This document shows positions 1,270-23,814 of a stretch of DNA of 23,814 nt, one piece after another (position 1 is the stretch's first letter; each line of letters opens with the position of its first letter). The notes under the pieces were generated by a model. The model saw only the letters and a list, made by a program, of their open reading frames with translations. It did not search any database and was not told the origin of the DNA. Both the position numbers and the translations under genes were made by a program. The stretch is taken from IMG/VR virus record IMGVR_UViG_2563366942_000005, positions 1 through 23,814 of that record; one strand, given 5' to 3'. The stretch comes from a virus. Lineage: Duplodnaviria; Heunggongvirae; Uroviricota; Caudoviricetes.

Positions 1270-1291
1270 GAAATACCGGTCAAAAGCTAAC

Positions 1292-3698: not shown

Positions 3699-3771
3699 CG
3701 TTATCTCTTTCTCATCATGCTGAAGAATAAAAATACGGTGTGCGGCGACGGCCGGTGTTAACCGGCAGCCC

Positions 3772-4272: not shown

Positions 4273-5003
4273 GACAGCAGTCCTCTGGCCTTAAGCTCTG
4301 CTCCCTGCTGGTCTATTTTGTCCTGCCACACCTTGCGCTGTGCCGGTGTGCCTGCCACCTCATAATCCATGTGCGGGAGTGTTGCCGCTGACAGTCCGGT
4401 CAGCCGGAGAACCGGCTCGCCGGTGAGGCTGATTTGCATCTGTTTAATTTTCTGTTCCAGCGATGATTTCACCTGCTGCATGACAGCCTTTTCCGGTGCG
4501 ACGTAGCCCTGATGGCCGGTGGTGTTGGCGAGCGGATTTTCCTGTACCAGGATACTCAGATGCATTGCCCGGACAAGCGCCTCACAGGTTTCATTCAGGG
4601 CGTGTTCCAGCTCATGCTCTGCATACAGACTCAGAAGGTGATGATGTGCCTTCCGGTAGGCGGTGGCCGTGCTGTCACACGCCCCTTTCAGGCGTTCACG
4701 TTCAAAATTCAGCACCACGGCCAGATTGTCATATTCCTGTACCAGCTCCCGGCGTGCCACGCGCTCAATGTGGCGCTGTTTCAGCTCGTCGCTCAGGACA
4801 CCACCGGCTGCACGAAAGGCCGTGCGCCAGTCGTCAGCGTCGTTTCCGTCGGCCTGCGCCAGCGCATTTTTTTCCTGCTCTGCCCGTTCAATGGCCGTGA
4901 CGGTCTCATCCATCAGACGGGCGTTCTCAAGATGGGCGGCTCTGGCCTTTTCCAGTTGTGCCAGCGCGGATTGCAGATATTCAGGGATGGTGTTGTCAGA
5001 CAT
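4269..5003 (-). CDS. sid: Sid, capsid size-determination (external scaffold) protein
   Basis: The ORF track gives 250 aa from an upstream Met. The ATG at 5003 (MSDNTIPEYLQ...) gives 244 aa, matching the P4 Sid length. The protein is alanine/glutamate-rich and helical in character, and is followed directly by delta and psu. Confidence 0.85.
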   Translation of the reverse strand: MSDNTIPEYLQSALAQLEKARAAHLENARLMDETVTAIERAEQEKNALAQADGNDADDWRTAFRAAGGVLSDELKQRHIERVARRELVQEYDNLAVVLNFERERLKGACDSTATAYRKAHHHLLSLYAEHELEHALNETCEALVRAMHLSILVQENPLANTTGHQGYVAPEKAVMQQVKSSLEQKIKQMQISLTGEPVLRLTGLSAATLPHMDYEVAGTPAQRKVWQDKIDQQGAELKARGLLS

Positions 5004-5172
5004 TTTCCGGCTCCTCGTCACTTCAGGTTAAGAAAATTGTGACGTACACCGGACAACAACACGACGCATTGCAGATGTGCCAGCCCTGACACAGGAGACT
5101 CATCCTCAGACCGGCAAGCCAGGAAAAGGTCGCAGGAAAAACCGGCTTACTGTTTGTTTTTTTATATTTTAC

Positions 5173-5276
5173 TGTTCACCTCTGTTCACCATAAGAAAAA
5201 AGATAAGTAATACAGTAAGTTAAAGGGTGAACAATCGCAGTAATGACTGTTCACCGTCTGTTCACCACTGTTCACC
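5173..5276. repeat. Cluster of TGTTCACC octamer iterons (P4 ori-like alpha-binding sites)
   Basis: Six exact copies of TGTTCACC or its complement GGTGAACA at 5173-5180, 5183-5190, 5226-5233, 5248-5255, 5259-5266 and 5269-5276, in the intergenic control region between sid and vis. The same octamer is reported as the P4 type I iteron. Confidence 0.7.
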
Positions 5277-5554
5277 CGTTGATGGGCTTTTTATGCTGTT
5301 TATTACTGTTTATTTTTATTAATTAACTGAAATAAATAAGAAAAAACAATTTGCATTTCACTATAAAAAATTCCAGGTCCTTCAGAACCCTTTGAGACCC
5401 TTCCAGTCCGGATGGATAAAAAACACACAGCCATTGTAAGGTTGCCGGAACAAATTCCCCCTGTTGCGTCTGCTGAAAATATTCACAAAATAAAGCGCTA
5501 CCCGAAGCCGGACGGACTTATCCGGTGCTGTATGGACATTAACGAGGTAGCCCG

Positions 5555-5821
5555 ATGCAAGCTGTTTTTTCTTCCCCGTCTCCCGCCCCTGTTACGCCAC
5601 TGATGCCGCTGCCGGACATCACGCAGGAGCGTTTTTTACGTCTGCCGGAAGTGATGCACCTGTGCGGCCTGTCACGCTCGACCATCTATGAACTCATCCG
5701 TAAGGGGGAATTTCCGCCGCAGGTGAGTCTTGGCGGTAAAAATGTGGCCTGGCTGCACTCTGAAGTCACCGCATGGATGGCCGGACGCATTGCCGGACGC
5801 AAACGGGGGGACGACGCATGA
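5555..5821 (+). CDS. vis: AlpA/Vis-family small DNA-binding regulator (excisionase-like helix-turn-helix)
   Basis: 88-aa ORF with the AlpA-type core ([46 protein letters not shown]). GAGG lies upstream of the ATG. Position is equivalent to P4 vis (orf88). Confidence 0.8.
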
Positions 5822-6210
5822 TGATGCCCGCTCTGCAAAAACTCCCTTTTTCTGGCTTGCCTTTTTCCGGCATTTGCGGATATAGTTTTTCCGCTGCCGC
5901 AAAATCGGCAGCCGGGCGTAGGAACCCGTGTAACTCGAAGGCGACATATGACGCGCCATGCGTCTTTTTTTGTGTCGCAATCAACGCCACAGAGCGCCAG
6001 ATTATGGTGTGGCGTGTGGTTTGCCGTGCAGGTATGATCCTGTTCGCAATCGCATGTTATGCCACTGAGTCAATGGTAGCTCAGGCGGGGCAGCCTCCGG
6101 GCTGGCCGGTATTCTTCGAGGCCGGTATTCCTACCCCCGTCTGGGCTATCGCCATCGAGCGTAGGAACTCCGGCGATAGCAGTTATTTGCTACTCGAAGG
6201 AGACTGCCTT

Positions 6211-6408
6211 ATGGCTACAACCCTTACCCCTTCACACCCTGAATTTGTCTTTGTGTTTGCGGCTGTCCGTCGCGCAGACCGTCATCCCCGTATCTGCATG
6301 CTTCGCACCGTCGCCGGTGATGAACGCAGCGCCCGCCGTTCCCTTGTCCGTGACTATGTGCTCTCCCTTGCTGCCCGTCTGCCGGTGGTGGAGGTGTCCC
6401 GTGCGTAA
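6211..6408 (+). CDS. Small hypothetical protein (65 aa) in the satellite early/immunity region
   Basis: ATG at 6211 preceded by AAGGAG. Its stop overlaps the GTG start of the next ORF. The upstream part of the 211-aa six-frame ORF containing it has a non-protein-like composition and is not called. Confidence 0.35.
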
Positions 6409-6688
6409 TAAAAAAGCCCCTCAGACCGTCTCAGCACGTCATGACGCCCGTGAACACCTCAGCATTGAGGCTTACCATAAGCTCAACCGCGCCAGCGCCG
6501 TATCCCAGTTTGTTGGGGGTGATTTGATTCACCGTGAACTCTCCGGCCTGCATCAGCTCTACATTCCGCATATTTTCAGCTACCTGAATGAAGATATTGA
6601 TTTTGTGCTGAATGAGCTGAAAGCCAAAGGCCTGTGCCGCGATTTTCTCGCCCAGCAGAAAGACCGGGGAGACAGGACGCATGTTTGA
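6401..6688 (+). CDS. Small early protein, epsilon-like by position (possible helper-derepression protein); start uncertain (GTG 6401, or upstream ATGs at 6356/6320/6245)
   Basis: ORF immediately upstream of the 151-aa and 106-aa genes and alpha. A GTG start coupled to the preceding stop gives 95 aa. The assignment rests on position and size only. Confidence 0.4.
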
Positions 6689-7136
6689 TTTTCCCCAGCC
6701 CGGTGAGATTTACCGTTCTGCCGGTTTTCCCGATGTGGCCGTGGTCGGCATTCTGGAAGACGGTATTCCGTGGGAAATGCCGTACCGCTGCCCGGAAATT
6801 GTCTGGAACCCGTACCGCCGTAAATTCAGTATCCTTGTGCGTATCCTCGCTGACGGGCGCACCACAGACATCCCGCTGGGGCGTTTTCTGCGGGAATTTA
6901 CCTGTGACCGTCCTGACCTGTTCAGACGCAGCCCCGTAAACCGGCATGCGGTACTGAAAGAAATGGCCGGAGACCCGGAATTACAGAAATGGCGGGAGAA
7001 ATATCTGGATATTTACCCGCAGGACCCTGTTCCGGTCAGCCGGGCGGCACCGGTGGCGCGGGAATGGCGGGAAATTCCCCGCACGGAGCCTGACCCGGAA
7101 ATCACCCCGGATAACAGTTACCGCAATTATCTGTAA
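6681..7136 (+). CDS. P4 orf151-like early protein
   Basis: 151-aa ORF with GGAGA upstream of the ATG, overlapping the previous stop. Size and position upstream of orf106/alpha match P4 orf151. Confidence 0.6.
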   Translation: MFDFPQPGEIYRSAGFPDVAVVGILEDGIPWEMPYRCPEIVWNPYRRKFSILVRILADGRTTDIPLGRFLREFTCDRPDLFRRSPVNRHAVLKEMAGDPELQKWREKYLDIYPQDPVPVSRAAPVAREWREIPRTEPDPEITPDNSYRNYL

Positions 7137-7271
7137 TTAAAAAACGACACCCGAAAAATTAAATGTGCGTATTCGCGCAGGGATACGCACGTCTTCAGGA
7201 GACGCAGATATGCCTTATCAGTTAATGCAACCGGCACGGAATGCAGTCATCTGTCACAGGGAGGAAAGCAA

Positions 7272-7592
7272 ATGAAAACACCCTTACCGCCCGTCTTACG
7301 CGCAGCCCTTTACCGTCGTGCTGTCGCCTGTGCCTGGCTGACCGTGTGCGAACGTCAGCACCGCTACCCGCATCTCACCCTTGAATCACTGGAGGCGGCC
7401 ATCGCCGCTGAGCTGGAAGGCTTTTATCTGCGCCAGCACGGTGAGGAAAAAGGGCGTCAGATAGCCTGTGCCCTGCTGGAAGATTTAATGGAATCCGGCC
7501 CCCTGAAGGCCGCGCCGTCGCTGTCCTTTCTCGGGCTGGTTGTGATGGATGAACTCTGTGCCCGTCACATAAAAGCGCCGGTACTGCACTGA
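7272..7592 (+). CDS. P4 orf106-like protein (possibly Cnr-like copy-number regulator)
   Basis: 106-aa ORF with a strong Shine-Dalgarno sequence (GGGAGGAAAG) immediately upstream of alpha. The Cnr identity is from memory of P4 literature and was not verified. Confidence 0.55.
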
Positions 7593-7606
7593 AGGAGAAC
7601 AACACC

Positions 7607-9940
7607 ATGAAAATGAACGTAACCGCCACCGTCAGCCATGCGCTCGGCCACTGGCCGCGTATTCTCCCGGCGCTGGGGATTCAGGTGCTGAAAAACCGTC
7701 ATCAGCCCTGTCCGGTCTGTGGCGGGAGTGACCGCTTCCGTTTTGATGACAGGGAGGGGCGCGGCACCTGGTACTGCAATCAGTGTGGTGCCGGTGACGG
7801 CCTGAAACTGGTTGAAAAGGTGTTTGGTGTCTCCCCGTCCGACGCGGCCACAAAGGTGGCTGCCGTGACCGGCAGCCTGCCACCGGCTGACCCGGCAGTG
7901 ACGACCGCCGCCGTTGCTGAAACAGACGCTGCCCGGAAGAACGCCGCCACACTGGCACAAACCCTGATGGCGAAAACCCGTACCGGAACCGGTAACGCCT
8001 ACCTGACCCGCAAGGGCTTTCCCGGCCGGGAATGCCTGATGCTGACCGGCACACACAGAGCCAGTGGCGTGAGCTGGCGCGCCGGTGACCTTGTGGTGCC
8101 ACTGTATGACGACAGCGGCGAACTGGTTAACCTTCAGTTAATCAGTGCTGACGGCCGTAAGCGCACCCTGAAAGGCGGACAGGTCAGGGGCACCTGTCAC
8201 ACCCTTGAAGGACAGAATCAGGCCGGAAAACGTCTGTGGATAGCGGAGGGATACGCGACCGCACTTACCGTGCATCACCTGACCGGTGAAACGGTGATGG
8301 TGGCGCTTTCTTCCGTGAACCTCCTTTCTCTGGCCAGCCTTGCCCGGCAGAAGCATCCGGCCTGTCAGATTGTCCTTGCCGCAGACCGTGACCTCAGCGG
8401 TGACGGCCAGAAAAAAGCCGCCGCAGCCGCAGATGCGTGTGAGGGTGTTGTTGCCCTGCCGCCGGTCTTCGGTGACTGGAATGATGCCTTCACGCAGTAC
8501 GGCGGGGAAGCCACCCGTAAGGCCATTTATGATGCCATCCGGCCACCGGCTGAAAGCCCGTTCGACACCATGAGCGAAGCGGAGTTTTCCGCCATGAGTA
8601 CCAGCGAAAAGGCCATGCGTATCTATGAGCATTACGGCGAGGCGCTCGCGGTCGATGCCAACGGCCAGCTTCTGTCCCGCTATGAAAATGGTGTCTGGAA
8701 GGTGCTGCCGCCACAGGACTTTGCCCGGGATGTGGCCGGGCTGTTTCAGCGTCTGCGCGCGCCGTTCTCCTCCGGGAAGGTGGCCTCCGTGGTGGACACC
8801 CTGAAGCTGATTATTCCGCAGCAGGAAGCCCCCTCCCGCCGCCTGATTGGCTTTCGTAACGGCGTGCTCGACACGCAGAACGGTACGTTCCACCCGCACA
8901 GTCCGTCACACTGGATGCGCACCCTGTGCGATGTGGATTTCACCCCGCCGGTGGACGGTGAAACGCTGGAAACCCACGCTCCCGCGTTCTGGCGCTGGCT
9001 TGACCGTGCTGCCGGTGGTCGTGCGGAAAAACGCGACGTGATTCTGGCCGCACTGTTTATGGTGCTGGCAAACCGCTACGACTGGCAGCTCTTTCTGGAG
9101 GTGACCGGTCCCGGCGGCAGCGGCAAAAGTATCATGGCCGAAATAGCCACCCTGCTGGCCGGGGAGGATAACGCCACATCGGCCACCATTGAGACGCTGG
9201 AATCCCCGCGTGAACGTGCCGCGTTAACTGGCTTCTCACTGATACGCCTGCCGGACCAGGAAAAATGGAGCGGCGACGGTGCCGGACTCAAGGCCATCAC
9301 CGGCGGCGATGCGGTGTCCGTTGACCCGAAATACCGGGATGCATACTCCACGCATATCCCGGCGGTAATTCTGGCCGTGAACAATAACCCGATGCGCTTC
9401 ACCGACCGCAGCGGCGGCGTGTCACGCCGGCGGGTGATTATTCACTTCCCGGAACAGATAGCCCCGCAGGAGCGCGACCCGCAGCTTAAGGACAAAATCA
9501 CCCGCGAGCTGGCGGTCATCGTGCGTCACCTGATGCAGAAGTTCAGCGACCCGATGCTCGCCCGGTCACTGCTTCAGTCCCAGCAGAACTCAGACGAGGC
9601 GCTGAACATCAAACGGGATGCCGACCCAACGTTTGATTTTATCGGCTATCTGGAAACCCTGCCGCAGACCAGCGGCATGTATATGGGGAACGCCAGTATC
9701 ATCCCGCGCAATTACCGTAAATACCTCTATCACGCCTATCTGGCCTACATGGAGGCAAACGGCTACCGGAATGTACTCAGTCTGAAAATGTTCGGGCTGG
9801 GGCTGCCGGTGATGCTGAAGGAATACGGACTGAATTACGAGAAGCGCCATACCAAACAGGGGATACAGACCAACCTGACGCTGAAAGAGGAAAGCTACGG
9901 CGACTGGCTGCCAAAATGTGACGACCCTGCAACAACCTGA
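7607..9940 (+). CDS. alpha: Alpha protein: bifunctional primase-helicase with origin-binding domain
   Basis: 777 aa, the same length as P4 alpha. It has an N-terminal zinc-binding primase motif (CPVCGGSDRF...CNQCGAGDG), a Walker A motif in the central helicase domain (GPGGSGKS) and a C-terminal DNA-binding region. Confidence 0.95.
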   Translation: MKMNVTATVSHALGHWPRILPALGIQVLKNRHQPCPVCGGSDRFRFDDREGRGTWYCNQCGAGDGLKLVEKVFGVSPSDAATKVAAVTGSLPPADPAVTTAAVAETDAARKNAATLAQTLMAKTRTGTGNAYLTRKGFPGRECLMLTGTHRASGVSWRAGDLVVPLYDDSGELVNLQLISADGRKRTLKGGQVRGTCHTLEGQNQAGKRLWIAEGYATALTVHHLTGETVMVALSSVNLLSLASLARQKHPACQIVLAADRDLSGDGQKKAAAAADACEGVVALPPVFGDWNDAFTQYGGEATRKAIYDAIRPPAESPFDTMSEAEFSAMSTSEKAMRIYEHYGEALAVDANGQLLSRYENGVWKVLPPQDFARDVAGLFQRLRAPFSSGKVASVVDTLKLIIPQQEAPSRRLIGFRNGVLDTQNGTFHPHSPSHWMRTLCDVDFTPPVDGETLETHAPAFWRWLDRAAGGRAEKRDVILAALFMVLANRYDWQLFLEVTGPGGSGKSIMAEIATLLAGEDNATSATIETLESPRERAALTGFSLIRLPDQEKWSGDGAGLKAITGGDAVSVDPKYRDAYSTHIPAVILAVNNNPMRFTDRSGGVSRRRVIIHFPEQIAPQERDPQLKDKITRELAVIVRHLMQKFSDPMLARSLLQSQQNSDEALNIKRDADPTFDFIGYLETLPQTSGMYMGNASIIPRNYRKYLYHAYLAYMEANGYRNVLSLKMFGLGLPVMLKEYGLNYEKRHTKQGIQTNLTLKEESYGDWLPKCDDPATT

Positions 9941-9956
9941 CCCTCATAACTCATCT

Positions 9957-9980
9957 GACCGGCATCTGCCGGTCTTTTTT
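9957..9980 (+). terminator. Putative intrinsic terminator downstream of alpha
   Basis: GC-rich hairpin GACCGGCATCTGCCGGTC followed by TTTTTT, 17 nt after the alpha stop codon. Confidence 0.6.
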
Positions 9981-9998
9981 CATCCCTGAATCCCCCGA

Positions 9999-10275
9999 AG
10001 GTGAACAATCCACTGTTCACCCTTCACCGTATATTCACCAGTTATCACACTGAAATTAAAAGAGAAAAACGAAAGGTGAACAGTGTGAACAATCAAATCA
10101 AAAAAAACTTTTTTCTTCCTGAGTGATTTCAGTGCGGAGGATTAATCACCGGTATGAGTCACACCGGCAGAATGCCGGAGGTGAAGAATCGAATGTTCAC
10201 CCTTCACCCATTATTCACCACCTATCACTCTGAAATAAAAGGAGAAAACAGAAAGGTGAACAGTGTGAACAGTTC
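9999..10275. repeat. Tandem direct repeat (two imperfect units of about 100 bp, period about 180 bp), each carrying TGTTCACC/GGTGAACA iterons plus an A-tract/T-tract; crr-like cis replication region
   Basis: Unit 1 (about 9999-10100) and unit 2 (about 10179-10280) align along their length. Full octamers lie at 10000-10007, 10014-10021, 10075-10082, 10194-10201 and 10255-10262, with degenerate copies between. Each unit ends in an A8/T6-type tract. Confidence 0.7.
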
Positions 10276-10484
10276 TTTCGAAAAAAAATTTTTTATGTGG
10301 ATAAAAGATGCACTGGTTTGGATCCGAGCTACGGATCCAAACTTACTGATTAAAAATGATTTAACTTTCCGATTTATTGATGGGCTGAAAATAGATTGGT
10401 CAGAAAAACAGTGGGGGCACAAAAGGGGGCATATTTCATTGTTGTGTTTTATTATTTGTTTTTTATCATTAACTTATTTTGATG

Positions 10485-10506
10485 TTTGAGTCCGGCCTTC
10501 GCACCA
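10485..10506 (+). other. attR: partial direct repeat of a tRNA-Leu 3' end (integration-site core)
   Basis: TTTGAGTCCGGCCTTCGCACCA closely resembles the 3' end of E. coli leuX tRNA (TTCGAGTCCGGCCTTCGGCACCA, from memory), with no tRNA body upstream. The position just past alpha/crr is where attR is expected. Confidence 0.6.
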
Positions 10507-10895
10507 CATCGTATGCAAATCGAGTCGCTCAAGGGCGGCTTTTTTTGTGCCTGTGTTTTCACTACTTTGTTTGTATGTAACGCTGATAATCTAAGAACTT
10601 CGGAAGCCCCATTCCCATCAATGATGTTCATTCATCATCCTGAAAATTAAGTAGATATAAAACTTCATTGCCTTGGTCTAATGGCTCAGGAAATAGATTG
10701 CATTTAGCGAGTGGCATTCTTAATGTGCCATTGTTTAGCCATGAAACGATGCGTAAAATTGCTGATTTTATGTGTCAAAGGCCCGCAACCGGAGATGTCC
10801 TTACTTCAAGGATCAACCACTATTGGCGTATCCTTTTACTATCTTGATTCAATTCAGCAGGTTATCGTCAAAAGTACAGCGAAGAGAGAGAAAAG

Positions 10896-13787
10896 ATGAT
10901 TGGTACAACACCTTATCATGCGAAATATTTTGCGCATGAACTTTCCATTCTCCATTCAAACAATGGGGTGGACCGTCTGTCTCAATCGCTGTTTGATGCA
11001 AGCGTAGATCTAAATCCTCATCAAATTGAGGCGGCTCTTTTTGCTATTGAAAATCCGCTAAGCAAAGGTGTTGTGCTTGCCGATGAAGTTGGTTTAGGTA
11101 AAACCATTGAAGCGGGGTTAGTGCTTTGCCAGTTGTGGGCTGAAAGAAAACGTAAACTGTTGATCATTTGTCCTGCTTCACTGCGTCGCCAATGGGCGAG
11201 CGAGTTACAGGAAAAGTTCAATCTACCTTCTCAGGTGTTGGACGCGAAAACGTATAGCCAGCTTCAAAAAGAAGGGATCCATAATCCCTTAAATAATAAA
11301 TCGATCACTATCATGTCATACCACTATGCTGCTCGGTTAGAAGAAAAATTGGTGGCTGAAATGTGGGATCTGGTTGTTATCGACGAAGCCCATAAACTGC
11401 GTAATGCTCATCGAGAAAGTAACAAAATGGGGCAAGCGTTAAAGCGTGCGCTTGATGGGCGGAAAAAATTACTACTGACCGCAACGCCTTTACAGAATTC
11501 GTTAATGGAACTGTATGGCATGTCGACGCTTATAGATGAACATACCTTCGGCGAAGTTAAAGCGTTCAGAAAGCAATATATGCAGGCAGATAGCGATATT
11601 GCGGAGTTGAAGGGGCGATTGTCGCGTTTTATCAAACGAACTTTACGCAAGAATGTGCTGGAGTACATCAAGTATACAGAACGTAAAGCGATCACTATTC
11701 CTTTCTATCCGAGCGAACAGGAGCAGGATCTTTATGAACGCGTACAAAAATTGCTTGAACGTGAGGATAGCTATGCCTTACCAAAACGACACCGGCATCT
11801 GACGGGGCTTATTCTCAGAAAGCTACTTTCCTCAAGTACGAAAGCTGTATTGAATAACTTGCAGATCCTTAAGAGTCGTTTAGAAAGGTTAAAGCTGGAA
11901 GGTATCGTTGAAGATGATATGAACATCATCCAACAGATCATAATGGATGACGATCTTGAAGATGACATCGTGGAAGATGCCGAATCAGTGGCTTTAGATA
12001 CCGAGTGCAAAGTTGTCGATTCAGACGCGCTTCAGGCAGAAATCAATGAGCTGGAATCACTCATTGTCAAAGCAGAACAGATTGGCACTGATACCAAATC
12101 AAAAGAGTTGCTTTCTGGCCTGGAGCAAGGTTTTGCACAGCTTGCCGAAATGGGGGCTGCAAAAAAAGTCATCATCTTCACGGAGTCAATGCGAACTCAA
12201 CAGTATCTTGCACATTTTCTGGAAAACAATGGCTACCAGGGGAAAGTAGTAACCTTTAGTGGCACAAACAATACACCGCAGGCAAACAAGATCTACCAGC
12301 AATGGCGCGAGGAATATCAGGGATCTTCTCGTATTACCGGGTCGGCGCAAATTGATAAACGCTCGGCTTTGATCGACCACTTCAAAGATCATGCTGAAAT
12401 CATGATAGCTACAGAAGCTGCAGCTGAAGGGGTGAACCTGCAATTTTGTTCGCTACTGATCAATTACGATTTACCCTGGAACCCACAACGCATTGAACAG
12501 CGTATTGGACGTTGTCACCGATACGGGCAAAAATTTGATGTGGTTGTTATTAACTTCCTCAATCAGCGAAACCAGGCCGATCAACGCGTTCTTGAACTCT
12601 TAACTGAAAAGTTCAGCCTGTTTGATGGCGTGTTTGGCGCATCGGATAGTGTGCTTGGCAGCATAGAAAATGGTGTGGATTTTGAAAAAAGGATCCAGTC
12701 AATTTATGAGTCATGCCGTACCCCCGAGGAGATAGAGCTGGCTTTTGAAAGGTTGCAGAAAGAGCTGGAAGATGAAATCAATCTCAAGATGCAGAAGACG
12801 CAAGAACAGTTGCTTGAGCATTTTGATGAAGATATTCACGATATCCTTAAAATAAGGCTTGATGAAGCTCGGGAGCGTCTGGATAAAGTCGGTCGTTGGT
12901 TTTGGGCCGTGACCTGTCAGCAGCTCAAACAATATGCTGATTTTGATCATGAGCATCATCGTTTCACTTTACGTGAATCAGTAAATGAACTGCCTGTCGG
13001 GCAGTACCAGCTGTTGCGCAAAGATGGTAGGCAAAATAGTGCGTTACAAATGCAGGATCACCACAGTTTTGCATATCGGATCAATCATCCGCTGGGTGAG
13101 TACGTCATTGAGGGGGCTAAGGTCCAGGAGACGAAAACAGCTGAAGTCATCTTCGATTACAGTAACCACACAACGAAAGTCTCGGTGGCTGAGCAGCTGA
13201 AAGGGCAATCAGGGTGGTTAACACTAAATTTGCTTACTGTTGATGCGTTTAACAGGCAGCAATTTTTAGTCTTTACCGCAAAAACTGACAACGGACGTGT
13301 GGTAGATGGTGAAGCTTGTAAACGTCTGTTCAACTTGTCTGCAATAACCAACGAAAAGCTGGATAATTCGGCAAGTTCAGATGCATTACCTGATGACTTG
13401 ATCTTACTCAAGAACAGGCAAATTGACGCCAGACTTGCGGAAGTTCTGGAGCAGAACAATGTCCTTTTTGAAGCTGAAAGAGATAAGCTGGAAAAATGGG
13501 CTGAAGATATGATCTTTGCGGCGGAAGAAGCATTACGCGATACCAAAATGCAAATCAAGTCGTTAAAGCGAGAAGCCAGACTGGCGCAATCGATGGAAGA
13601 ACAAAAGCAAAACCAGGAAAAGCTGAAGCTACTGGAACGGCAGCAGAAACGCCAACGTATGGAAATTTTTGACATTGAAGATGAGATCGCTGACAAGCGG
13701 GATGAACTCATCAGTGCCCTTGAAGAGCGGATGAAGCAAAAAACGGATATCACCGAGCTTTTTTCCATCCGCTGGAAAGTTATTTAA
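10896..13787 (+). CDS. SNF2-family (SWI2/SNF2) helicase/ATPase with about 400-aa coiled-coil-rich C-terminal extension; DrmD-like
   Basis: 963 aa with helicase motifs I (LADEVGLGKT), II (VVIDEAHKLRN), III (LLTATPLQNS) and VI (QRIGRCHRYGQ). It is the first gene of an AT-rich three-gene operon, with AGAGAGAAAAG upstream of the ATG. Confidence 0.9.
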   Translation: MIGTTPYHAKYFAHELSILHSNNGVDRLSQSLFDASVDLNPHQIEAALFAIENPLSKGVVLADEVGLGKTIEAGLVLCQLWAERKRKLLIICPASLRRQWASELQEKFNLPSQVLDAKTYSQLQKEGIHNPLNNKSITIMSYHYAARLEEKLVAEMWDLVVIDEAHKLRNAHRESNKMGQALKRALDGRKKLLLTATPLQNSLMELYGMSTLIDEHTFGEVKAFRKQYMQADSDIAELKGRLSRFIKRTLRKNVLEYIKYTERKAITIPFYPSEQEQDLYERVQKLLEREDSYALPKRHRHLTGLILRKLLSSSTKAVLNNLQILKSRLERLKLEGIVEDDMNIIQQIIMDDDLEDDIVEDAESVALDTECKVVDSDALQAEINELESLIVKAEQIGTDTKSKELLSGLEQGFAQLAEMGAAKKVIIFTESMRTQQYLAHFLENNGYQGKVVTFSGTNNTPQANKIYQQWREEYQGSSRITGSAQIDKRSALIDHFKDHAEIMIATEAAAEGVNLQFCSLLINYDLPWNPQRIEQRIGRCHRYGQKFDVVVINFLNQRNQADQRVLELLTEKFSLFDGVFGASDSVLGSIENGVDFEKRIQSIYESCRTPEEIELAFERLQKELEDEINLKMQKTQEQLLEHFDEDIHDILKIRLDEARERLDKVGRWFWAVTCQQLKQYADFDHEHHRFTLRESVNELPVGQYQLLRKDGRQNSALQMQDHHSFAYRINHPLGEYVIEGAKVQETKTAEVIFDYSNHTTKVSVAEQLKGQSGWLTLNLLTVDAFNRQQFLVFTAKTDNGRVVDGEACKRLFNLSAITNEKLDNSASSDALPDDLILLKNRQIDARLAEVLEQNNVLFEAERDKLEKWAEDMIFAAEEALRDTKMQIKSLKREARLAQSMEEQKQNQEKLKLLERQQKRQRMEIFDIEDEIADKRDELISALEERMKQKTDITELFSIRWKVI

Positions 13788-13807: not shown

Positions 13808-16800
13808 ATGAGTAAGTACAACGAATTAGTTAAGAAGCTAAAAGAAATTTTTCAGATTGATCGACCAGAACTGGATTTCGGTATTTATCGTATTTTAAAT
13901 GCACGTGCTGATGAAATTAACGACTATCTGGATAATAAGCTGAAGGCCAAAATCCAGTCTGCGCTGGCGGATGCAGGAAATGCCAATAAATCAGAATTAG
14001 AACATCAGTTGCAACTGACAATAAAAGCGGCAACTGATGCGGGTGTGGACCCTGCTGATAGCCCGAAAGTACAGGAGCTTAAAAAGCAACTGGCGGCTAT
14101 GGCATCCGGAGCAAATGAGCATGAAAATGCAGTATTTTCCCATCTGCTGACTTTCTTTTCGCGTTATTATGACAACGGCGATTTTATCAGCAAACGCCGT
14201 TATAAAGGTAATACCTACGCCATCCCTTATTCTGGCGAAGAAGTGATGTTGCACTGGGCAAATAAGGACCAGTACTACATTAAAAGCGGTGAAAACTTTG
14301 CTAATTATTCATTTAAATTAGATGATGGTCGTAAAGTTAGCTTTAAATTGCTCGCAGCGGACACAGCAAAAGATAACCGTAAAGATAATGAATTAGATCG
14401 CTGCTTTGTACTTATTGAGCCGCATGTTCGTACCAAAATTGATGAAGAAGGCGATGAGTACGAACAAGAATATAAGCCAGTAGAAGTGGTGAAAACTTCA
14501 TCTGTGGTTGACGGTAAACTCGTTGAAACAGAAGAGTTAGTTATTCACTTCGAATATAAGGCCATGAAAAAGGGCACTAAGCAGGATGCTTTAGTGCAGT
14601 CCGCTATTTCAACAATTCTGGCTGATAAAACAGTTCAACAGCATTGGGTTGATCTTGCTAAACGTGCGCCAACAGAAAAAAATCCGTCACGTACAGAGTT
14701 GGAGCGTCATCTTACAACTTATACCCAGCGTAATACAGCAGACTACTTTATTCATAAAGATCTCGGTGGTTTTTTAACTAACGAACTGGATTTTTATATT
14801 AAAAATGAAGTAATGAATCTCGATAATGTGCAAAATGCAGAAGTGTTTGCCAATATTGAGAAACAATTGCGCATGATTCAATGTTTGCGTACTGTTGCGC
14901 TGGAACTCATTGCATTTTTGGCACAAATTGAGAATTTCCAGAAGAAACTTTGGACTAAGAAGAAGTTTGTTGTTTCAAGTAATTACTATATTACTATGGA
15001 CAAAATAAGTTCAGAGTTTTACAGTGAAATAATTAATAATGAAAAAATAGTCCAAGAATGGATTGAATTAGGCATCTTAGATGAGAAGCCATCTACCTCT
15101 GATGTGGAGTTGCTCAAGTTTGCAACAGTTAATTTATCTCATTTAAACGGAGATCTAAGGAAAAAAATATTAAATAGTATCAATGATATTGACGATAATG
15201 TTGATGGCGTTTTTATTAATGGTGATAATTATCAAGCGTTAAATCTTTTGAAGAAAAATATAATTCCGTAATTGATTGTGTCCATATAGATCCACCATAT
15301 AACACAGATACTAGTGGTTTTTTATATAAAAATAGCTTTAAGCATTCAAGTTGGCTGAGTATGATGGATAGCCGTTTGCTTTTTGTTAAAAATTTACTCA
15401 GTGAAAATGGTGTATTTTTTTGTCATATTGATGAAAATGAATATGAGCGACTTTATTTAATTAATAAACAGTTAGGTCTTATCGATGCAGGGACAATTAT
15501 TTGGGATAAACGCAATCCCATGAATGGTGGTAGTGGCATTGCGATTCAACATGAATATACTACTTGTTTTACAAAGAACATGATTTCTATTAATAAGAAA
15601 AATGAGAATGTATTAGAAATACTCGAATATGCAAAATTAATTAAGAATAAATATCCTGTAATTAACAGTGAAGCAAAGAAAAAATTTTATGATTGGGTAA
15701 CAAAGAATAAAAAACTTACTGGAGGTGAACAAGCTTACAAATATATCGATGAGAAAGGTCGAGTGTACCAGAGTGTCAGCCTCCGTGCCCCAGAGCCAAG
15801 GACTGACAAGAAATTCTATATACCATTAATTCATCCAGTTACCGGGAAACCATGCGCTATGCCACCAAATGGTTTTTCTCGTACCCCAGAAACATTAAAA
15901 GATATGATGGATAAGGGGGATATACTATTTGGTGTTGATGAAACAACGCAACCTAGACAGAAAGCATATTTATATGCTGACGCTAAAAAGCAAATAACAT
16001 CAATAATTCAGGATGCTAAAAAAGGAAAAACTCAAACAACTCATCTTGGAATTGATTTTCCTTATTGTCACTCAACTTCTTTATATAATTATTTAATTGG
16101 GAGTGCATCTCATAATAAAAATGAGATAATATTAGATTTTTTTGCTGGTTCAGGAACAAGTGGCCACTCAGTCATAGAGTTGAATCGTAAGGATGCGGGT
16201 TCAAGGAAATATATACTTGTTGAACAGGGGGAGTATGCACAAAATGTAACTTTAAGCAGGTTGAGAAAAGTTATATTCAGTAGCAATTGGAAAGATGGTA
16301 AAGCTATGGATTCAACGACAGGCTCATCTCATATACTTAAAGTTATGAAAATAGAAAGTTACGAAGATGTATTAAATAGCCTTCGATTTGAACAACAAAA
16401 AGAAATAAAAGATCTTTTTGATACAGTGAATGAATCAGTAGCAAATGAGTATTTAATAAAATATATGCTTGAAACAGAAAGCAAAGGTTCACTACTCAGT
16501 ACTGATAATTTCAAAAAACCATTTAACTACGAAATGGATATTGCGACGGATTCCGCCGGTGCCACTGAGCGTAAAAACATCGATTTAGTTGAAACTTTCA
16601 ACTATCTCATTGGTTTACATGTGAAATCCATCGAATCCAATATCGAACGTGGCTATGTGCGTGTTGAAGGAATGCTACCAACAGGCGAGCGTACCCTTAT
16701 TCTGTGGCGCGATTGCGACAAGATCGGTTATGAAGAATTGAATAAATATGCCAGCCGATTCGATTTATATGCAAAAGAAAACACGTTCGACGTTATCTAT

Positions 16801-16929
16801 ATCAATGGCGATCATAACTTACCTACCGCCTTTACCGTTGATGAAGAAGACGGCGAGATTGTTCGTAGCCTGAAAATCCGCCAGATCGAACCTGAATTCT
16901 TGAACCTGATGTTTGCGGAGGAGGTTTAA
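13808..16929 (+). pseudogene. Large beta-class N6-adenine DNA methyltransferase (about 1040 aa if fused), split by a frameshift near 15229-15271
   Basis: The N-terminal ORF (frame 2) ends at 15271 just after ...GDNYQALNLLKKN. Frame 1 is open from 15229 and reads SVIDCVHIDPPYN (motif IV, DPPY) and then DFFAGSGTSGHSVIELN (motif I, FxGxG). The two halves are one methyltransferase with the frame shifted inside an A-rich stretch (GAAGAAAAATATAAT). Start ATG taken at 13808 (MSKYNEL...). Confidence 0.8.
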
Positions 16930-17291
16930 GAATGGCTAAAAAACCAACCACCGGTAAAGCTGTTAAAAAAGAGACAAACAGCAAACTGAGCTTTCATAAG
17001 CAACTGGTTTTGAACCGCTTTATGTTCCATTTTTTTAAAGATGGCACATTGCAAGGTTTAAAGAATCGGTTAGGTGAAGATCGCTTTGAAGGCATCCATG
17101 AAGATGGCCAAAGCTTGTTCTTCCATGAGCTGAGTAACTATTTATTCGAGGTCGATCTTATCGATCTCGATGAACTGCGTCGTTACGATCTCAATATCGT
17201 ACAGCACTGGCAGCAGATAACTGAGCACCGTAATCGGGTGATGCTGCCAACTTACTGATTTAGTGTATGATGGTGTTTTTGAGGTGCTCCA

Positions 17292-17567
17292 GTGGCTTCT
17301 GTTTCTATCAGCTGTCCCTCCTGTTCAGCTACTGACGGGGTGGTGCGTAACGGCAAAAGCACCGCCGGACATCAGCGCTATCTCTGCTCTCACTGCCGTA
17401 AAACATGGCAACTGCAGTTCACTTACACTGCTTCTCAACCCGGTACGCACCAGAAAATCATTGATATGGCCATGAATGGCGTTGGATGCCGGGCAACTGC
17501 CCGCATTATGGGCGTTGGCCTCAACACGATTTTACGTCACTTAAAAAACTCAGGCCGCAGTCGGTAA
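17292..17567 (+). CDS. insA: IS1 InsA (transposition inhibitor / N-terminal part of InsAB' transposase)
   Basis: 91-aa protein [42 protein letters not shown]..., matching IS1 InsA. Confidence 0.95.
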
Positions 17568-17989
17568 CCTCGCGCATACAGCCGGGCAGTGACGTCATCG
17601 TCTGCGCGGAAATGGACGAACAGTGGGGCTATGTCGGGGCTAAATCGCGCCAGCGCTGGCTGTTTTACGCGTATGACAGTCTCCGGAAGACGGTTGTTGC
17701 GCACGTATTCGGTGAACGCACTATGGCGACGCTGGGGCGTCTTATGAGCCTGCTGTCACCCTTTGACGTGGTGATATGGATGACGGATGGCTGGCCGCTG
17801 TATGAATCCCGCCTGAAGGGAAAGCTGCACGTAATCAGCAAGCGATATACGCAGCGAATTGAGCGGCATAACCTGAATCTGAGGCAGCACCTGGCACGGC
17901 TGGGACGGAAGTCGCTGTCGTTCTCAAAATCGGTGGAGCTGCATGACAAAGTCATCGGGCATTATCTGAACATAAAACACTATCAATAA
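17486..17989 (+). CDS. insB: IS1 InsB reading frame (expressed as InsAB' transposase by -1 ribosomal frameshift)
   Basis: 167-aa ORF matching IS1 InsB (...[50 protein letters not shown]...). It overlaps insA in the -1 frame. Confidence 0.9.
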
Positions 17990-20900
17990 GTTGGAGTCAT
18001 TACCCGTAATCGCAAAGAAGACACCGTGCTGAATATGAAATATTTTCAGTACTTGTCGCTTCTGTTTACCGAGATCTACCTGGACTGGTACTTCAATCGT
18101 AAACAGCAATTACTCGATGGGCTAAATAACGAGCTGGCAGCATACAATGCTGAAAATGATAAAACAGCAAAAGACCGGGCTAATCAGTTCAAATCATACA
18201 TTCTAGATGACTTGAATAAACTTGCATACTGGAACGCTACCGGTTCGGGTAAAACACTGCTATTGCATGTCAATATTTTGCAATATTTACATTATTTCCA
18301 GAACGGTAATACCCACCATTACCCGGATAAAATCATCCTGCTTACGCCGGATGAACGCCTGTCGAAGCAACATTTAGATGAGCTGGAAAACTCAGGATTT
18401 ACCCAATACCAGTTATTCGATAAGAGTAAATCTGCGCCCTTCAAAGGCACGATTGAAGTTATTGATATCAATAAACTTGCCGATGAAATGGGTGACAAAA
18501 CTGTTGCCGTTGAGGCATTTGAAGGCAACAATCTGGTTCTGATTGATGAAGGGCATAAAGGCACCGGAAGTGCTGCTGGTGCCTGGATGCGCCGTCGTGA
18601 CAAATTAACACGTGACGGATTTGCGTTTGAATATTCAGCAACTTTTGGCCAGGCAGTAGCCGGTGGCAATAATGTTGAGGCAGTTGAAACAGAAATTCAG
18701 AAGAAAAAAGCAAAGCTGCTTTTTGAAACAACGGCCTTAGGTAAACTGAACGAAGAAGAGTTAGCGCAAATAGCATTAACCAGCGAAGAAAAACGAGATG
18801 CGCGTATTCAGGCGACGCGAGAGGTCTATGGAAAATCGATTCTGTTCGATTACTCCTATAAATTCTTCTATGAGGATGGTTATGGTAAAGAATCACTGAT
18901 TCTTAACCTTAATCCTGAAGAGGATAAAAAAGATGAGCGTCGGTATGAGTATTTTACCGCGTGTTTGCTCAGCTTTTATCAGCAACAATATTTATTCAAT
19001 AAGAATAAAGAAAAATTAAGTGAATTTAATATCGAAAAACCGCTGTGGGTTTTTGTCGGTAATACGGTAAGTGGTGAAGATTCAGACATTCACGCAGTAT
19101 TGCGTTTTTTAGCATGGTTTTTAAACCACGAAACGCAGGCAAAAGCGTGGATTAACGATCTCATTAAAAATAAAGCGCGAATCCTCGATACCAAAGAGCG
19201 TAACATTTTTGAAAATCGCTTTACTGCACTAATGAACGCTCCGGAAGATATCTACGCAGATATTCTTTCTCGCTTGTTTAACACCACTCACTCTGGTCAG
19301 CGACTGCGAGTTCTGAATTTAATAGGCAGTAAAGGTGAACTGGCATTACAGGTTGGTGAGGCCGAACCGTTTGGCCTTATCAATATTGGTGATGCACCGT
19401 CTCTTTACAAAATGTGTGAAGAGGATACGACATTTGATTATCAGAGAGATGATTTTGCAAAGTCACTCTTTCATACGTTAAATGACAAAGACTCGCGACT
19501 ACATATTTTGATCGGCTCGCGAAAATTTACTGAAGGCTGGAGCAGTTGGCGCGTCTCAACGATGGGATTGCTCAATATGGGCCGTGGAGAAGGTTCACAG
19601 ATCATTCAGTTATTTGGTCGTGGCGTACGCCTTAAAGGTCGCAATTATTCTTTGAAACGCAGTACACCCGGTGAGCGTCCGAAAGGGTTGCATCTGGAAA
19701 AATTAGAGACACTGAATGTATTCGGTGTACGTGCCGATTACATGGCAACCTTTAAACAATACCTGGAAGATGAAGGGATTACGCCAAGTGACGAGATCCT
19801 TGAGCTGAATTTTGAAACTCGGCCAAATATGCCAGCAACCAGGCTTAAAACACTTAAGCTTAAAGATGGTTATAAAGATAATCAAAGACTCGGCTTTAAA
19901 CGTGTCTATTTTCCCGAATTGTATGAAGTTCCTGCTGATTTTCAGGGGAAAATTAAGCAGCCGCATATTAAGCTGGACTTATACCCGAAACTTGAGTCGA
20001 TTGATACCAGCAGAAAAGGGGACAATACTCCGGTTAACGTGCGCAATGAAGCGAAGTTAGATTATAAAATCATTAGTGCATTTGATTTTGATCGGCTTTA
20101 TCTCGCCATTCAGAATTATAAACTACAACGCGGCTGGTCAAATTTACGTGTGGATAAACAACGTTTGATCGACTTTTGTACCGGTAAGACAAAGATCGGA
20201 AATAGTTGGTATACCCTTTTGATTCCAGCTTCAGAGCTTGAGATTAAGCAATATGCAGATATTGCTAAGCAGGAAGATATTATGCTTCGTCTGCTGACTG
20301 ATTATACTGATCGCTTTTACAACACCTTGAAAAATGCTTATGAAGGTCAGTTTTATGAAGTCACGCAGGTGAAAGAAGATGATCCTGGTATGATCAAAAT
20401 GTACCATTTCGAGATCGAAGAAACTGATGATGGGTTGGCTTATGCCAGTCGGCTGGAACAATTACAACAATTGGTCATCGACGGCGAAATCGGTAAAGCA
20501 AAATCCTGGAGTGCATCCGGGATGGTTGCTATTACCTTTGATAAACATCTCTATTACCCGCTTCTTTCGATTGAAAAAAATGCCAATATACCGCTAAAAA
20601 TGCGACCGGCAGCACTTGGTGCGCCAAGCGAGATTACTTTTGTTCAGGATCTTCAGTCTTTTGTTGATTCGACAAAAGGGCAGAAAATTATTGGTGATAA
20701 AAGTTTATATCTGCTAAGAAATGCGGATTCTAAAAATAAAGGCCTGGGCTTTGCTACTGCGGGTAATTTTTATCCGGATTTCTTATTGTGGTTAGTCGAT
20801 GATAAAAGTGGTAAACAATGGCTAAGTCTTATTGATCCAAAAGGCATTCGCAATCTTAATCTTGATGATCCGAAGTTCGGATTATATAAAGAAATTAAGA

Positions 20901-21100
20901 ATCTTGAACATAAATTATCGGATGATAACTTATCATTAAGTGCATTTATTGTTTCTGAAACTTGTTATGTTGACTTAGTAAACGTACCTGACTCAAAAGA
21001 AAATCTGGAAGCCAGAAATGTGCTTTTTATTGAGGATACAGGCCCCGTTTATCTGGAGAAGTTATTCAGTAAGATGGTTAGCGAGTAAATAATTATGATT

Positions 21101-21134: not shown

Positions 21135-21437
21135 TTATCGCCAATGTGCAGGAATAATTAGGTCAAACGATTTTGCTGCATATTCAAGCATTTTTATTAT
21201 TTCCCTGTGTCGTTCCTGGTCGAACGGCTGTCCATTTTTTCTACACTCTATAATCCCTTGTAACTCTTTTAGGTTAAACATATCAAGAAGATAAAAGTTT
21301 TTCCATGTTGGTTGCCCGAAGAGGTTATAGACTGTTTCTGTAGCATCTCTCTCACTTGCTAATCTTTTCTCTCCGTCTATTTTTTCAAAAAATATTTCAG
21401 CTGTTTCTTTATCATCATAAGTATTTAACAATTCCAT
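21135..21437 (-). CDS. Hypothetical small protein (100 aa), AT-rich orphan
   Basis: ORF of 100 aa (MELLNTYDDKETAEIFFEKIDGEKR...) on the strand opposite to the operon. It is AT-rich and has no recognisable motif. Confidence 0.45.
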   Translation of the reverse strand: MELLNTYDDKETAEIFFEKIDGEKRLASERDATETVYNLFGQPTWKNFYLLDMFNLKELQGIIECRKNGQPFDQERHREIIKMLEYAAKSFDLIIPAHWR

Positions 21438-21749: not shown

Positions 21750-22622
21750 TCACCCCCTAAAAACCTCTTTTCGATGCCACTCCACAAACCCCTCAAAAGG
21801 GTAATTTTTACGCACCTGTGGCAACGCAATAGTTTTCCCGTCAAAATCCCAGAATAATCTCTCAACGATCCCTCCGCCGTTTACCGCATCCGAGACCAGT
21901 ACCCGCATATTTTCATCCAGGCCAATCGATCCTTTATCAAAGGCTTTATGGTGTATTGCGCAAAGCGCCAGACCATTGGGGATTTCACAAGGGCCGCCGT
22001 GCTGTTTCCATTTTATATGCGCCGCTTCCAGCGCGACGGTGGTGTCGTCGTGGCGCATATTAAAGCCACATATCGCGCACTGGTAGTTATAAGCGCGTAA
22101 TACATTTTTGCGAAATAACGGGTCGCGCTGTTTACGGATTTGCTGGAGATCAAAACCCAGCTCGTCAGCAATTTCTTCCTGAATACTCTCGGTGAAGTGC
22201 GCTTCGAGTATCTGTTGCGCCAGAGTATTGATGAGTTTTTTATTGCCGGTTACCAGGGCGTAGTGCTGTTCATCGAAACCGCCTGCAACGTGGTATTCGT
22301 TCAGTTCCTTCACTGGCGGTTGTCGGCTGCTCCCTGCTGTTGAGCAAAGCTCGGCATTGTGTAATTGCCAGAATCCGTCGCCTTGTAATCGCCAAAACGG
22401 CATATCAGGTCGGTACTGTGAACGCTGTGGCCCAAAACGTTCCAGTAAACTGTGCAGAGGTTCGTAGATTTCCGATCCATAATCGAAAAGGCGTGGATGT
22501 CCATTCAGGTATCCCGCTAATACGTATAGCAATAACAATGGTTTATGCGGTGCGCGCTGTTCACCCTTATGCCAGATTTTTATATTGGCAATTGCCTGCT
22601 GTAGCGATTTACTGGAAGCCAT
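21750..22622 (-). CDS. HNH-motif endonuclease with N-terminal uncharacterised domain (candidate modification-dependent/Type IV-like restriction nuclease); start taken at the Shine-Dalgarno-supported ATG (MASSKSL...)
   Basis: The C-terminal region carries an HNH signature (YQCAICGF...ALEAAHIKWKQHGGP...NGLALCAIHHKAFDKG). The six-frame ORF extends to a TTG at 22679, but AGGGA precedes the ATG at 22622. Confidence 0.75.
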   Translation of the reverse strand: MASSKSLQQAIANIKIWHKGEQRAPHKPLLLLYVLAGYLNGHPRLFDYGSEIYEPLHSLLERFGPQRSQYRPDMPFWRLQGDGFWQLHNAELCSTAGSSRQPPVKELNEYHVAGGFDEQHYALVTGNKKLINTLAQQILEAHFTESIQEEIADELGFDLQQIRKQRDPLFRKNVLRAYNYQCAICGFNMRHDDTTVALEAAHIKWKQHGGPCEIPNGLALCAIHHKAFDKGSIGLDENMRVLVSDAVNGGGIVERLFWDFDGKTIALPQVRKNYPFEGFVEWHRKEVFRG

Positions 22623-22833
22623 TGATATCCCTGGCAGTGAAATAATTGCGATCATGCTCGCAAATTTTCTGCTGTTCAAGCCTGCAAGTGAAGATATATT
22701 ACCTTGATCTCATTTGTTTTTTTGCTGCCTGTGTGCCCTAATTGCCATGCGATGTTGCACCGACGCAAACCACCGTTTATGCCGGAGGAGTTAAAAGCGC
22801 TGATGGATGCGAATAAATCAAATTAATGAACGC

Positions 22834-23814
22834 TCACCTTTCGCGCCAAAACTGCAAAATTGCTTCTACAAACCTGTCAGAAATAATCCCTCGACGGGCT
22901 GCCGCGCTGAAATGACTGCTTCGCAGTGCCGTCGTCCAGTTCTCCGGTGACCGGTACGCTGAACCGTAATATCCCGTGCTTAAATCGTCCGGGTCTTCAT
23001 CAGGCGCGTTCGTCAGTCCTCTTTCACCTTGTTGCTGGAAGTCGACGAAAATAATATTGGCTAAAACATTATTTTGATAATTGCCATAAATAGCTTCATA
23101 CGCATGAGGGAAATTTTCTTTCCAGTACCAGGTGGTATCGCCGCAAAACCAGGGCGCATCAGTAATATTATTAAGCTGAGAATGGTATTGTTTTAGATCC
23201 CTACGAAAGGCTTCAACCATATGATTAAAGTGTTGAGGGTGTGACGCGTAGTCACTGGTCATTAAGTCAAATTCGCCTTGCATCCAGCATACGCCGAGGA
23301 ATTTGTTCTGCGGATTTTTTGTCAGTGCGGCTCGCGTTCTGCTGACTAAATCCTGGTATAGCGGAGTATCCGTTCCCCAACGACAAGCATCATGGCTGGC
23401 TCCGTGCCGTTCTGAATATGTCCCTTCGCTGCCCGCGGTAAAAGCCGATCCGCCACGGCAACACGGAACGATGAGAACCCCTGCGTTATCAGGAATAAAG
23501 GGCAGTAATTTCCGTGCAATATGCAGTGCCTGGCCAACGGTGCCGTACTGTGTTTGATGATTCGTTGCCAGAGGATGGTGATAACCCTGCATATCCTGAA
23601 CATCGTGTGGGCAGTGAGTCAGTGGAATAATGTCGTTAAAGTGACATGACGGGCCTCCGGGATGCGTATGCGCAAATCTCGCTAATTGTTTAATTCTGGG
23701 ATGAGGCGCATCTTCCCTGTCCGGTAATGGCAGTCCTTCGCCATACGCCATGGCATTAGACTGACCAGCAACGGTAAGAACATAGTAATAATCAGGCGAT
23801 ATTATTGCGTTCAT
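22834..23814 (-). CDS. nanS: Sialate O-acetylesterase NanS/YjhS-like protein (core-genome flank)
   Basis: 326-aa ORF (MNAIISPDYYYVLTVAGQSNAMAYGEGLPLPDRE...) recognised as E. coli YjhS/NanS-like from memory. It has SGNH-type esterase character (GQSN motif near the N-terminus). The start codon is at the window edge. Confidence 0.75.
   Translation of the reverse strand: MNAIISPDYYYVLTVAGQSNAMAYGEGLPLPDREDAPHPRIKQLARFAHTHPGGPSCHFNDIIPLTHCPHDVQDMQGYHHPLATNHQTQYGTVGQALHIARKLLPFIPDNAGVLIVPCCRGGSAFTAGSEGTYSERHGASHDACRWGTDTPLYQDLVSRTRAALTKNPQNKFLGVCWMQGEFDLMTSDYASHPQHFNHMVEAFRRDLKQYHSQLNNITDAPWFCGDTTWYWKENFPHAYEAIYGNYQNNVLANIIFVDFQQQGERGLTNAPDEDPDDLSTGYYGSAYRSPENWTTALRSSHFSAAARRGIISDRFVEAILQFWRER

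Follow-up and report, generated by a model that had tools for sequence, protein, structure and literature searches.

Gene content and setting of the cassette

The window -- the whole stretch of DNA analysed, 23,814 nucleotides -- carries a cassette of three genes, encoding a DrmD-like SNF2 ATPase, a 1040-aa Mod and a 1126-aa Res, of which only the first is intact here. The features on which the rest of this account depends are as follows.

10486-10507, + strand: attR of the P4-like satellite that lies upstream; it duplicates the 3' end of the tRNA-Leu gene leuX
10896-13787, + strand: SNF2-family ATPase gene, DrmD-like, intact, 963 aa, first in the cassette (Pfam SNF2-rel_dom and Helicase_C)
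13808-15271, + strand: 5' fragment of mod, translating to 487 aa and then a premature TAA; it holds a conserved N-terminal domain and the first ~27 residues of the methyltransferase domain, with the GDN motif
15161-15167, + strand: A7 tract, intact here, a second slippage site in the same mod allele
15254-15258, + strand: A5 tract, site of a 1-bp deletion; ancestrally A6, in codons AAG AAA AAA (K481-K483)
15269-15271, + strand: premature TAA stop made by the frameshift
15272-16929, + strand: 3' part of mod, in the -1 frame, with DPPY, the target-recognition region and motif I (Pfam N6_N4_Mtase, 7.5e-30)
16932-17236, + strand: 5' fragment of res, its first ~102 codons; a 108-aa ORF (16932-17258) runs from here into IS1
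17237-18004, + strand: IS1A-family element of 768 bp, flanked by a target duplication of 8-9 bp, (C)CGTAATCG
18005-21088, + strand: 3' part of res, encoding SF2 helicase motifs and, at the C-terminus, a PD-x17-DPK nuclease motif

The SNF2 gene matches DrmD in PADLOC (1.3e-199) and is annotated in relatives as an SNF2-related protein (WP_000580534.1); the NCBIfam model DISARM_DrmD_b gives it 666 bits, under the 950-bit cut-off. Mod and Res are matched over their full length by PADLOC MTase_III and REase_III respectively, and NCBIfam returned no informative family for either. The order SNF2-Mod-Res is kept in most of 80 species-level loci with a mod orthologue, drawn from Proteobacteria, Bacteroidota, Verrucomicrobiota and other groups.

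Several properties place Mod and Res with the Type III systems. Residues 462-810 of Mod match the experimentally characterised EcoP15I Mod (4ZCF_A; E = 1.7e-39), its C-terminal half (~460-825) being homologous to that enzyme, and the motifs come in the beta-class order shared with EcoP15I and EcoP1I (PDB 4ZCF): GDN, then DPPY (motif IV), which is N-terminal to the recognition region and to motif I (FxGxG). As in those systems, res lies directly after mod and encodes SF2 helicase motifs (Pfam ResIII and DEAD) and a C-terminal nuclease motif of the PD-(D/E)xK type, here PD-DxK; ATGSGKT, DEGH, QxxGRGxR and the C-terminal PD-x17-DPK are each kept at 90% or more in 64 Res sequences from E. coli and from orthologues in other species. 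The differences from EcoP15I and EcoP1I are nevertheless substantial. The present Mod has an extra N-terminal domain of ~455 aa with no Pfam family or fold match (AlphaFold2 mean pLDDT 73.9, pTM 0.51; Foldseek of the prediction against the PDB gave nothing below E = 0.18), the present Res has diverged so far that no PDB sequence matches it, a DrmD-like SNF2 ATPase gene is conserved as a third member, and in the window the system is a double pseudogene. When the N-terminal 455 aa of Mod were used in a homologue search, all 120 matches listed were shorter than 800 aa, mostly contig-end partials or fragments, and the full-length 1040-aa protein was absent among them; natural splits were therefore sought in the 80 species-level loci.

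The mod family was found in 167 of 5426 complete E. coli genomes. Like other Type III mod genes, its alleles swap a central region between conserved ends: a protein-level comparison of three of them (the E24377A, Santai and SI-NP020 types) gives identities of at least 97% for the N-terminal ~395 aa and the C-terminal ~140 aa, against only 0-50% for the central ~560 aa, from motif IV to motif I. A fourth allele length class is represented by the ST648 type. In contrast to other Type III genes, the swapped segment here takes in the catalytic motifs and not the recognition domain only; it coincides with a block of low GC content at ~14950-16500.

The presence of a DrmD-like SNF2 gene beside an adenine methyltransferase and a large helicase-nuclease recalls Class 1 DISARM and ARMADA II (bioRxiv 10.1101/2025.09.22.677730). 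However, a DUF1998 protein (DrmB), a DrmA or YprA-type helicase and a PLD nuclease are all missing from the cassette, its methyltransferase is a PF01555 Type III Mod, and its SNF2 protein scores below the DrmD equivalog cut-off. The DrmD-like SNF2 is thus all that it has of the Class 1 DISARM set (DrmA, DrmB/DUF1998, DrmD, DrmMI), and membership in either DISARM or ARMADA was rejected because DUF1998 and a YprA-type helicase are missing.

A P4-like satellite prophage (int, psu, delta and alpha primase) lies between tRNA-Leu and the cassette in the window; in strains M8, H22 and A3 the cassette directly adjoins tRNA-Leu. Carriage of the cassette as cargo of the P4 satellite was considered and rejected: homology to strain M8 starts inside the M8 tRNA-Leu gene, and homology to the insert-free strains starts in the tRNA-Leu 3' end, at 10484-10507 of the window, so that the cassette is chromosomal hotspot content lying outside attR. 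Its locus is the leuX-anchored E. coli defence hotspot 37, which hosts DISARM among other systems (PMC12707154).

The break in mod and the ancestral base

Translation of mod from the annotated start, ATG 13808 (TTG 13793 in the ORF list), ends in ...LLKKNIIP at the TAA at 15269-15271, the last part of the ORF reading ...NYQALNLLKKNIIP before the stop. A second frame, -1 relative to the first, stays open over 15229-16929 with the sequence ...SVIDCVHIDPPYN...; within it lie the DPPY motif IV (15289-15300) and, further on, motif I (DFFAGSGT, 16135-16158). The first-pass annotation, which was made from the letters of the window, had taken these as the N-terminal and catalytic halves of a single methyltransferase gene broken by a one-base frameshift just upstream of DPPY. 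The translation confirms both frames, and alignment with relatives shows that one base repairs the gene. The canonical GDN...IDPPY spacing, which had been predicted to return with that base, is indeed restored: the stretch aligns residue for residue with residues 90-141 of EcoP15I Mod, the frameshift falling between the GDN helix and IDPPY.

The earliest ATG, GTG or TTG of the -1 frame in the ORF list is ATG 15361, which is 3' of DPPY, so neither fragment made from a canonical start carries motif IV. A Pfam search with the 487-aa fragment gave no match. The uninterrupted frame expected of an active Type III Mod is thus lacking in the window, owing to the premature TAA at 15269-15271, and in annotation the 487-aa and 522-aa ORFs should be merged into one frameshifted pseudogene.

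In strain E24377A mod is intact and encodes a single 1040-aa "site-specific DNA-methyltransferase", WP_000049824.1. Base-level alignment of E24377A and XJ6.1 with the window shows a single difference in the region, GAAG-AAAAAA-TAT (A6) having become A5, and restoring one A to the window yields a continuous 1040-aa ORF with a layout identical to that of WP_000049824.1. A megablast search with the region gave 34 complete E. coli genomes that carry this allele (99.0-99.9% identity), nearly all of them one base longer; an 81-nt probe laid over the tract itself found the extra base in all 34 and an exact match in none. In the 80 species-level loci the mod orthologue matches without exception as one continuous frame, with residues ~1-1040 covered, and in 73 of them the match is held by an uninterrupted open frame of ~980-1170 aa. 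A scan for the exact A5 junction in a genome-contig collection with one genome per species gave 0 matches, which at that coverage is uninformative. The A6 of the E. coli relatives and the single-frame orthologues together make the ancestral state one gene, from which the window has lost 1 bp. The comparison with orthologues that had been proposed has thus supplied the ancestral base, and the reservation attached to it, that orthologues might be naturally encoded as two genes split at this very junction, is not borne out among either the E. coli genomes or the other species.

Reality of the allele and alternatives to inactivation

A sequencing or assembly error, with the true genome having A6 and an intact mod, had been among the three explanations first offered. 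In its favour, homopolymer indels are a common type of error, and A5 occurs in 0 of the 34 complete genomes in RefSeq that carry this allele. The exact 487-aa fragment, however, occurs on 32 contigs and in 60 indexed blocks of a public collection. Its sources include NCBI assemblies (several, e.g. E. coli KTE36), Logan assemblies and an ENA metagenome assembly, from separate runs and samples, the Logan assemblies stemming from at least six separate SRA runs. Homopolymers of 5-6 nt are, moreover, not error-prone on short-read platforms. An error is excluded for practical purposes, and the frameshift is a real, inherited allele. Over as much as 6.3 kb of aligned cassette, loci L003, L004 and L006-L011 match the window at 100% identity; one base in L003 differs from the window. 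In locus L005 (GCA_900450185.1) A5 goes with a 3' haplotype that differs slightly, which could mean a second origin of the deletion, or the assembly may simply be error-prone. It has three other frameshifts within 6 kb, in SNF2 and mod, which suggest homopolymer errors, and it was not relied on.

Phase variation among methyltransferases is classically a property of Type III mod genes (PMC5909438), and the A-tract might in principle be a contingency locus, giving reversible, high-frequency ON/OFF switching of mod and, with it, of a methylation-dependent regulon or of defence. The likeness to the phasevarions (modA, modH, STEC mod) is that a simple repeat within the ORF, upstream of the catalytic domain, changes in length and would so silence mod. 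In addition, natural length variants occur at both of two short A-tracts that lie 93 nt from each other shortly before DPPY: the reported tract is A6 or A5, and that at 15161-15167 is A7, A6 or A8, having changed in both directions and on at least two haplotypes. The survey of phase-variable Type III mod genes, however, used a criterion of 9 or more mononucleotides (Atack et al. 2018, PMC5909438), against which the affected tract has 6 nt and the longest homopolymer anywhere in mod has 7. Again in contrast to the phasevarions, the reported site shows no variation among the complete genomes, being A6 in 34 of 34, and the tract is not kept among alleles, other E. coli mod alleles encoding different residues there. 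Nor was reversion seen in the sub-lineage marked by IS1: of the contigs with the 108-aa Res fragment truncated by IS1, 24 were read (six inspected at base level and 18 grouped with them as similar), and every one also has the 487-aa Mod fragment. The close relatives thus show no polymorphism in both directions at the reported site, and the A5 haplotype has remained identical despite turnover of the neighbouring mobile elements, P4-like or CP4-like. Finally, mod has 12 A/T runs of 6 or more in a cassette with only ~30% GC, so that slippage lesions are to be expected without any design. Phase variation, the second explanation offered at first, is therefore unsupported, and we regard a switch of the phasevarion kind as very unlikely.

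The deletion in the window is not the only lesion in this gene. At least five of the 34 genomes with the window's allele carry others: A7 at 15161-15167 has shrunk to A6 in XJ6.1, MS 21-1 and H22 (at least two haplotypes) and grown to A8 in MB06101, and A3024 has an internal stop. Of the corresponding truncated Mod proteins, three were found on 14, 6 and 2 contigs and that of A3024 on 7, which shows these lesions to be real as well; the XJ6.1-type fragment has one nr entry only. Conversely, in a spread sample res is exactly 3381 nt long in 51 of 52 full-length rows, and the remaining one carried IS1. Thus mod is the usual first casualty in the cassette. This fits its AT-rich composition, with the A/T runs counted above, and it also fits Type III logic, in which loss of Mod is harmless since Res cannot act alone; in EcoP1I and EcoP15I, Res is inactive without Mod. 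The independent frameshifts that recur at A7 (15161-15167) and A6 (15254-15259) of the intact allele, tracts below the survey's threshold, could instead be a contingency switch of low rate, acting ON/OFF at the level of the population, an idea which we think improbable. If it were correct, lineages would shed self-methylation and restriction when these are costly, for example during uptake of mobile DNA at leuX, and would do so without killing themselves, since loss of Mod disarms Res.

The remaining suggestion, frameshift-dependent expression, would have full-length Mod made at a set ratio by a programmed -1 ribosomal frameshift or by transcriptional slippage on the A-run. The direction needed is, as read from the sequence, a -1 shift on an A-run, and A-rich slippery sites do serve recoding in dnaX and in IS elements. 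Here, though, the heptamer in the 0 frame is G AAA AAU and not X XXY YYZ, the 100 nt downstream show no structure (MFE -9 kcal/mol, z = +0.67 against shuffles), and the frameshift is not conserved, relatives encoding a single frame. Productive transcriptional slippage is associated with runs of roughly 9 nt or more, far longer than A5. With slippery heptamer, downstream structure and conservation in orthologues all wanting, programmed recoding is highly improbable and, on the sequence, both it and phase variation are rejected as the main explanation; low-level recoding may still give traces of full-length Mod.

A split enzyme, assembled from the 487-aa N-terminal fragment and a C-terminal fragment made by re-initiation, would require a start upstream of DPPY. 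Candidates are an AUU overlapping the stop (UAAUU, 15271) and an AUA at 15286, and some gene callers have given products of 552 aa or 547 aa from such starts (in L011 and L006), which would retain DPPY. Both codons are, however, very poor initiators in E. coli, and, from the alignment with EcoP15I, the break would part the GDN helix from motif IV within one folded domain. None of the 80 species-level loci has an orthologue organised as a split mod, and the later entry of IS1 into res fits a dead system. We give this arrangement hardly any credence. Among the three explanations offered at first, genuine inactivation is thus the one which the evidence favours.

Interruption of res and the order of decay

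The intact Res of E24377A has 1126 aa. In the window its gene is split by the IS1 element, whose InsA and DDE_Tnp_IS1 domains are seen in the gene calls of L006; the junction between IS1 and res found in the window occurs in no complete genome. Loci L003, L004 and L007 have the A5 haplotype together with an intact 1126-aa res. Since such alleles, identical at the tract, exist without the insertion, the frameshift came first and IS1 entered res later. The earlier statement that the modification arm of the system is off was therefore correct as to the frameshift in mod and too narrow in naming that arm only, res being split by IS1 as well.

Type III Res depends on Mod for target recognition (PMC12707154), so that both arms have probably been off since the first event; restriction was, on this analysis, probably lost at the same step as modification. 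In Type III systems cleavage also needs two unmethylated sites in inverse orientation, and methylation is of one strand. That this divergent Res depends on this Mod is an extrapolation from EcoP1I and EcoP15I, and we infer the loss of the two activities, methylation and restriction, from the sequence.

The course of events that we consider highly probable is the ordinary one of a pseudogene made by slippage while a defence cassette decays, with mod going first and res later. Replication slippage of the ordinary kind took one A from the A6 run of mod in the leuX-adjacent, Type III-like cassette, so that translation of Mod now stops 6 codons before DPPY, and, as no canonical start lies between the stop and DPPY, presumably no active methyltransferase is made. 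The A5 allele is a stable inherited pseudogene common to an E. coli lineage. Loss of Mod probably silenced restriction too, so that the mutation would have done the cell no harm and res could decay in its turn, and IS1 subsequently entered res in the sub-lineage that includes the window. The deletion itself, its reality, its stability and the order of the two events are direct observations. Gene decay of this sort is already known, and the case adds little that is new in kind.

For annotation the consequence is practical: with mod frameshifted and res split by IS1, the SNF2-Mod-Res cassette should be scored as non-functional; software that finds defence systems would otherwise report a Type III system here. 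The lineage also amounts to a small natural experiment on the decay of mod and then res, in which strains remain viable with mod broken and res intact. A broken mod together with a res annotated as an intact protein-coding gene is likewise found in MS 21-1, XJ6.1, H22 and A3024, and the viability of these strains fits the Type III logic by which Res is harmless without Mod.

Probable exchange of the central mod region

In mod, the Type III-like methyltransferase gene of the defence cassette, GC content is 28-35% at window positions ~14950-16500 versus ~42% in the flanks, and this low-GC block is coextensive with an allele-specific central cassette that takes in motif IV (DPPY), the recognition region and motif I (DFFAGSGT). 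Among the proteins of the three E. coli alleles compared (E24377A, Santai and SI-NP020 types), the N- and C-terminal parts are at least 97% identical, with an identity of just 0-50% in the centre. These conserved ends, together with the divergent, low-GC centre, point to a cassette exchange that included the catalytic motifs.

The N-terminal domain of Mod (window 13808-15172, ~455 aa) is strongly conserved across phyla, with ~57-100% identity among the 120 relatives listed. It matches no Pfam family, no fold match was found for it in the PDB, and its AlphaFold model is only moderate (pLDDT 74). Since it stays constant while the alleles exchange their catalytic cassette, it may be a docking module for Res or for the SNF2 protein, the DrmD-like ATPase.

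Further changes in mod and res

15161-15167, A7 tract in mod, 93 nt upstream of the broken A tract and intact in the window
17237-18004, IS1A-family element, 768 bp, with an 8-9 bp target duplication CGTAATCG

The A7 tract differs in length among strains: it is shortened to A6 in XJ6.1, MS 21-1 and H22, on two or more haplotypes, and expanded to A8 in MB06101. The three remaining 7-nt runs showed no indels in the sequences examined, so the A7 tract may represent a genuine hotspot of slippage, though the numbers are small.

In the window res is interrupted after about codon 102 by the IS1A-family element, which is a second inactivating event in the defence cassette, later than the first. The res gene of strain E1654 also carries an IS1, from a separate and independent insertion.

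The copy at 3088-9121 of L005 (GCA_900450185.1) has the A5 allele, that is, mod with the 1-bp deletion. Additional frameshifts affect its SNF2 gene and the 3' half of its mod gene, in mod at a run of six A (nt 1873 of the gene), and two of its 3' SNPs match the E24377A type. There are two readings of L005: a long-read assembly prone to errors, or a recombinant copy that has decayed further.

Flanking elements

21135-21437, 100-aa hypothetical gene, neighbour of the HNH endonuclease gene
21750-22679, - strand, predicted phosphorothioate-DNA-binding HNH restriction endonuclease (NCBIfam NF045808, 1e-131)
22834-23814, nanS, neighbour of the HNH endonuclease gene

ScoMcrA-type SBD and HNH domains are assigned to this same endonuclease gene in related loci; no dnd modification genes lie within the window.

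1-10507, P4-like satellite prophage, comprising:
1-1269, integrase
1292-2697, - strand, two-gene pair between integrase and psu
3126-3698, psu
3772-4272, delta
4269-5021, possible sid gene, proposed from position, with no family match
5773-6408, Ash-family gene
7607-9940, alpha primase
10486-10507, attR, the tRNA-Leu 3' end

The integrase-psu interval is a site of variable defence cargo in P4-like elements. One protein of the pair found there (313 aa) has a RexA domain (Pfam, 5e-11) and the other (155 aa) a weak RexB match (PADLOC, 5e-06); the pair may be a RexAB-like abortive-infection module. In other strains sharing the broken mod haplotype, the satellite is replaced at the same position by a CP4-like island, which encodes a CbtA/CbeA toxin-antitoxin pair.
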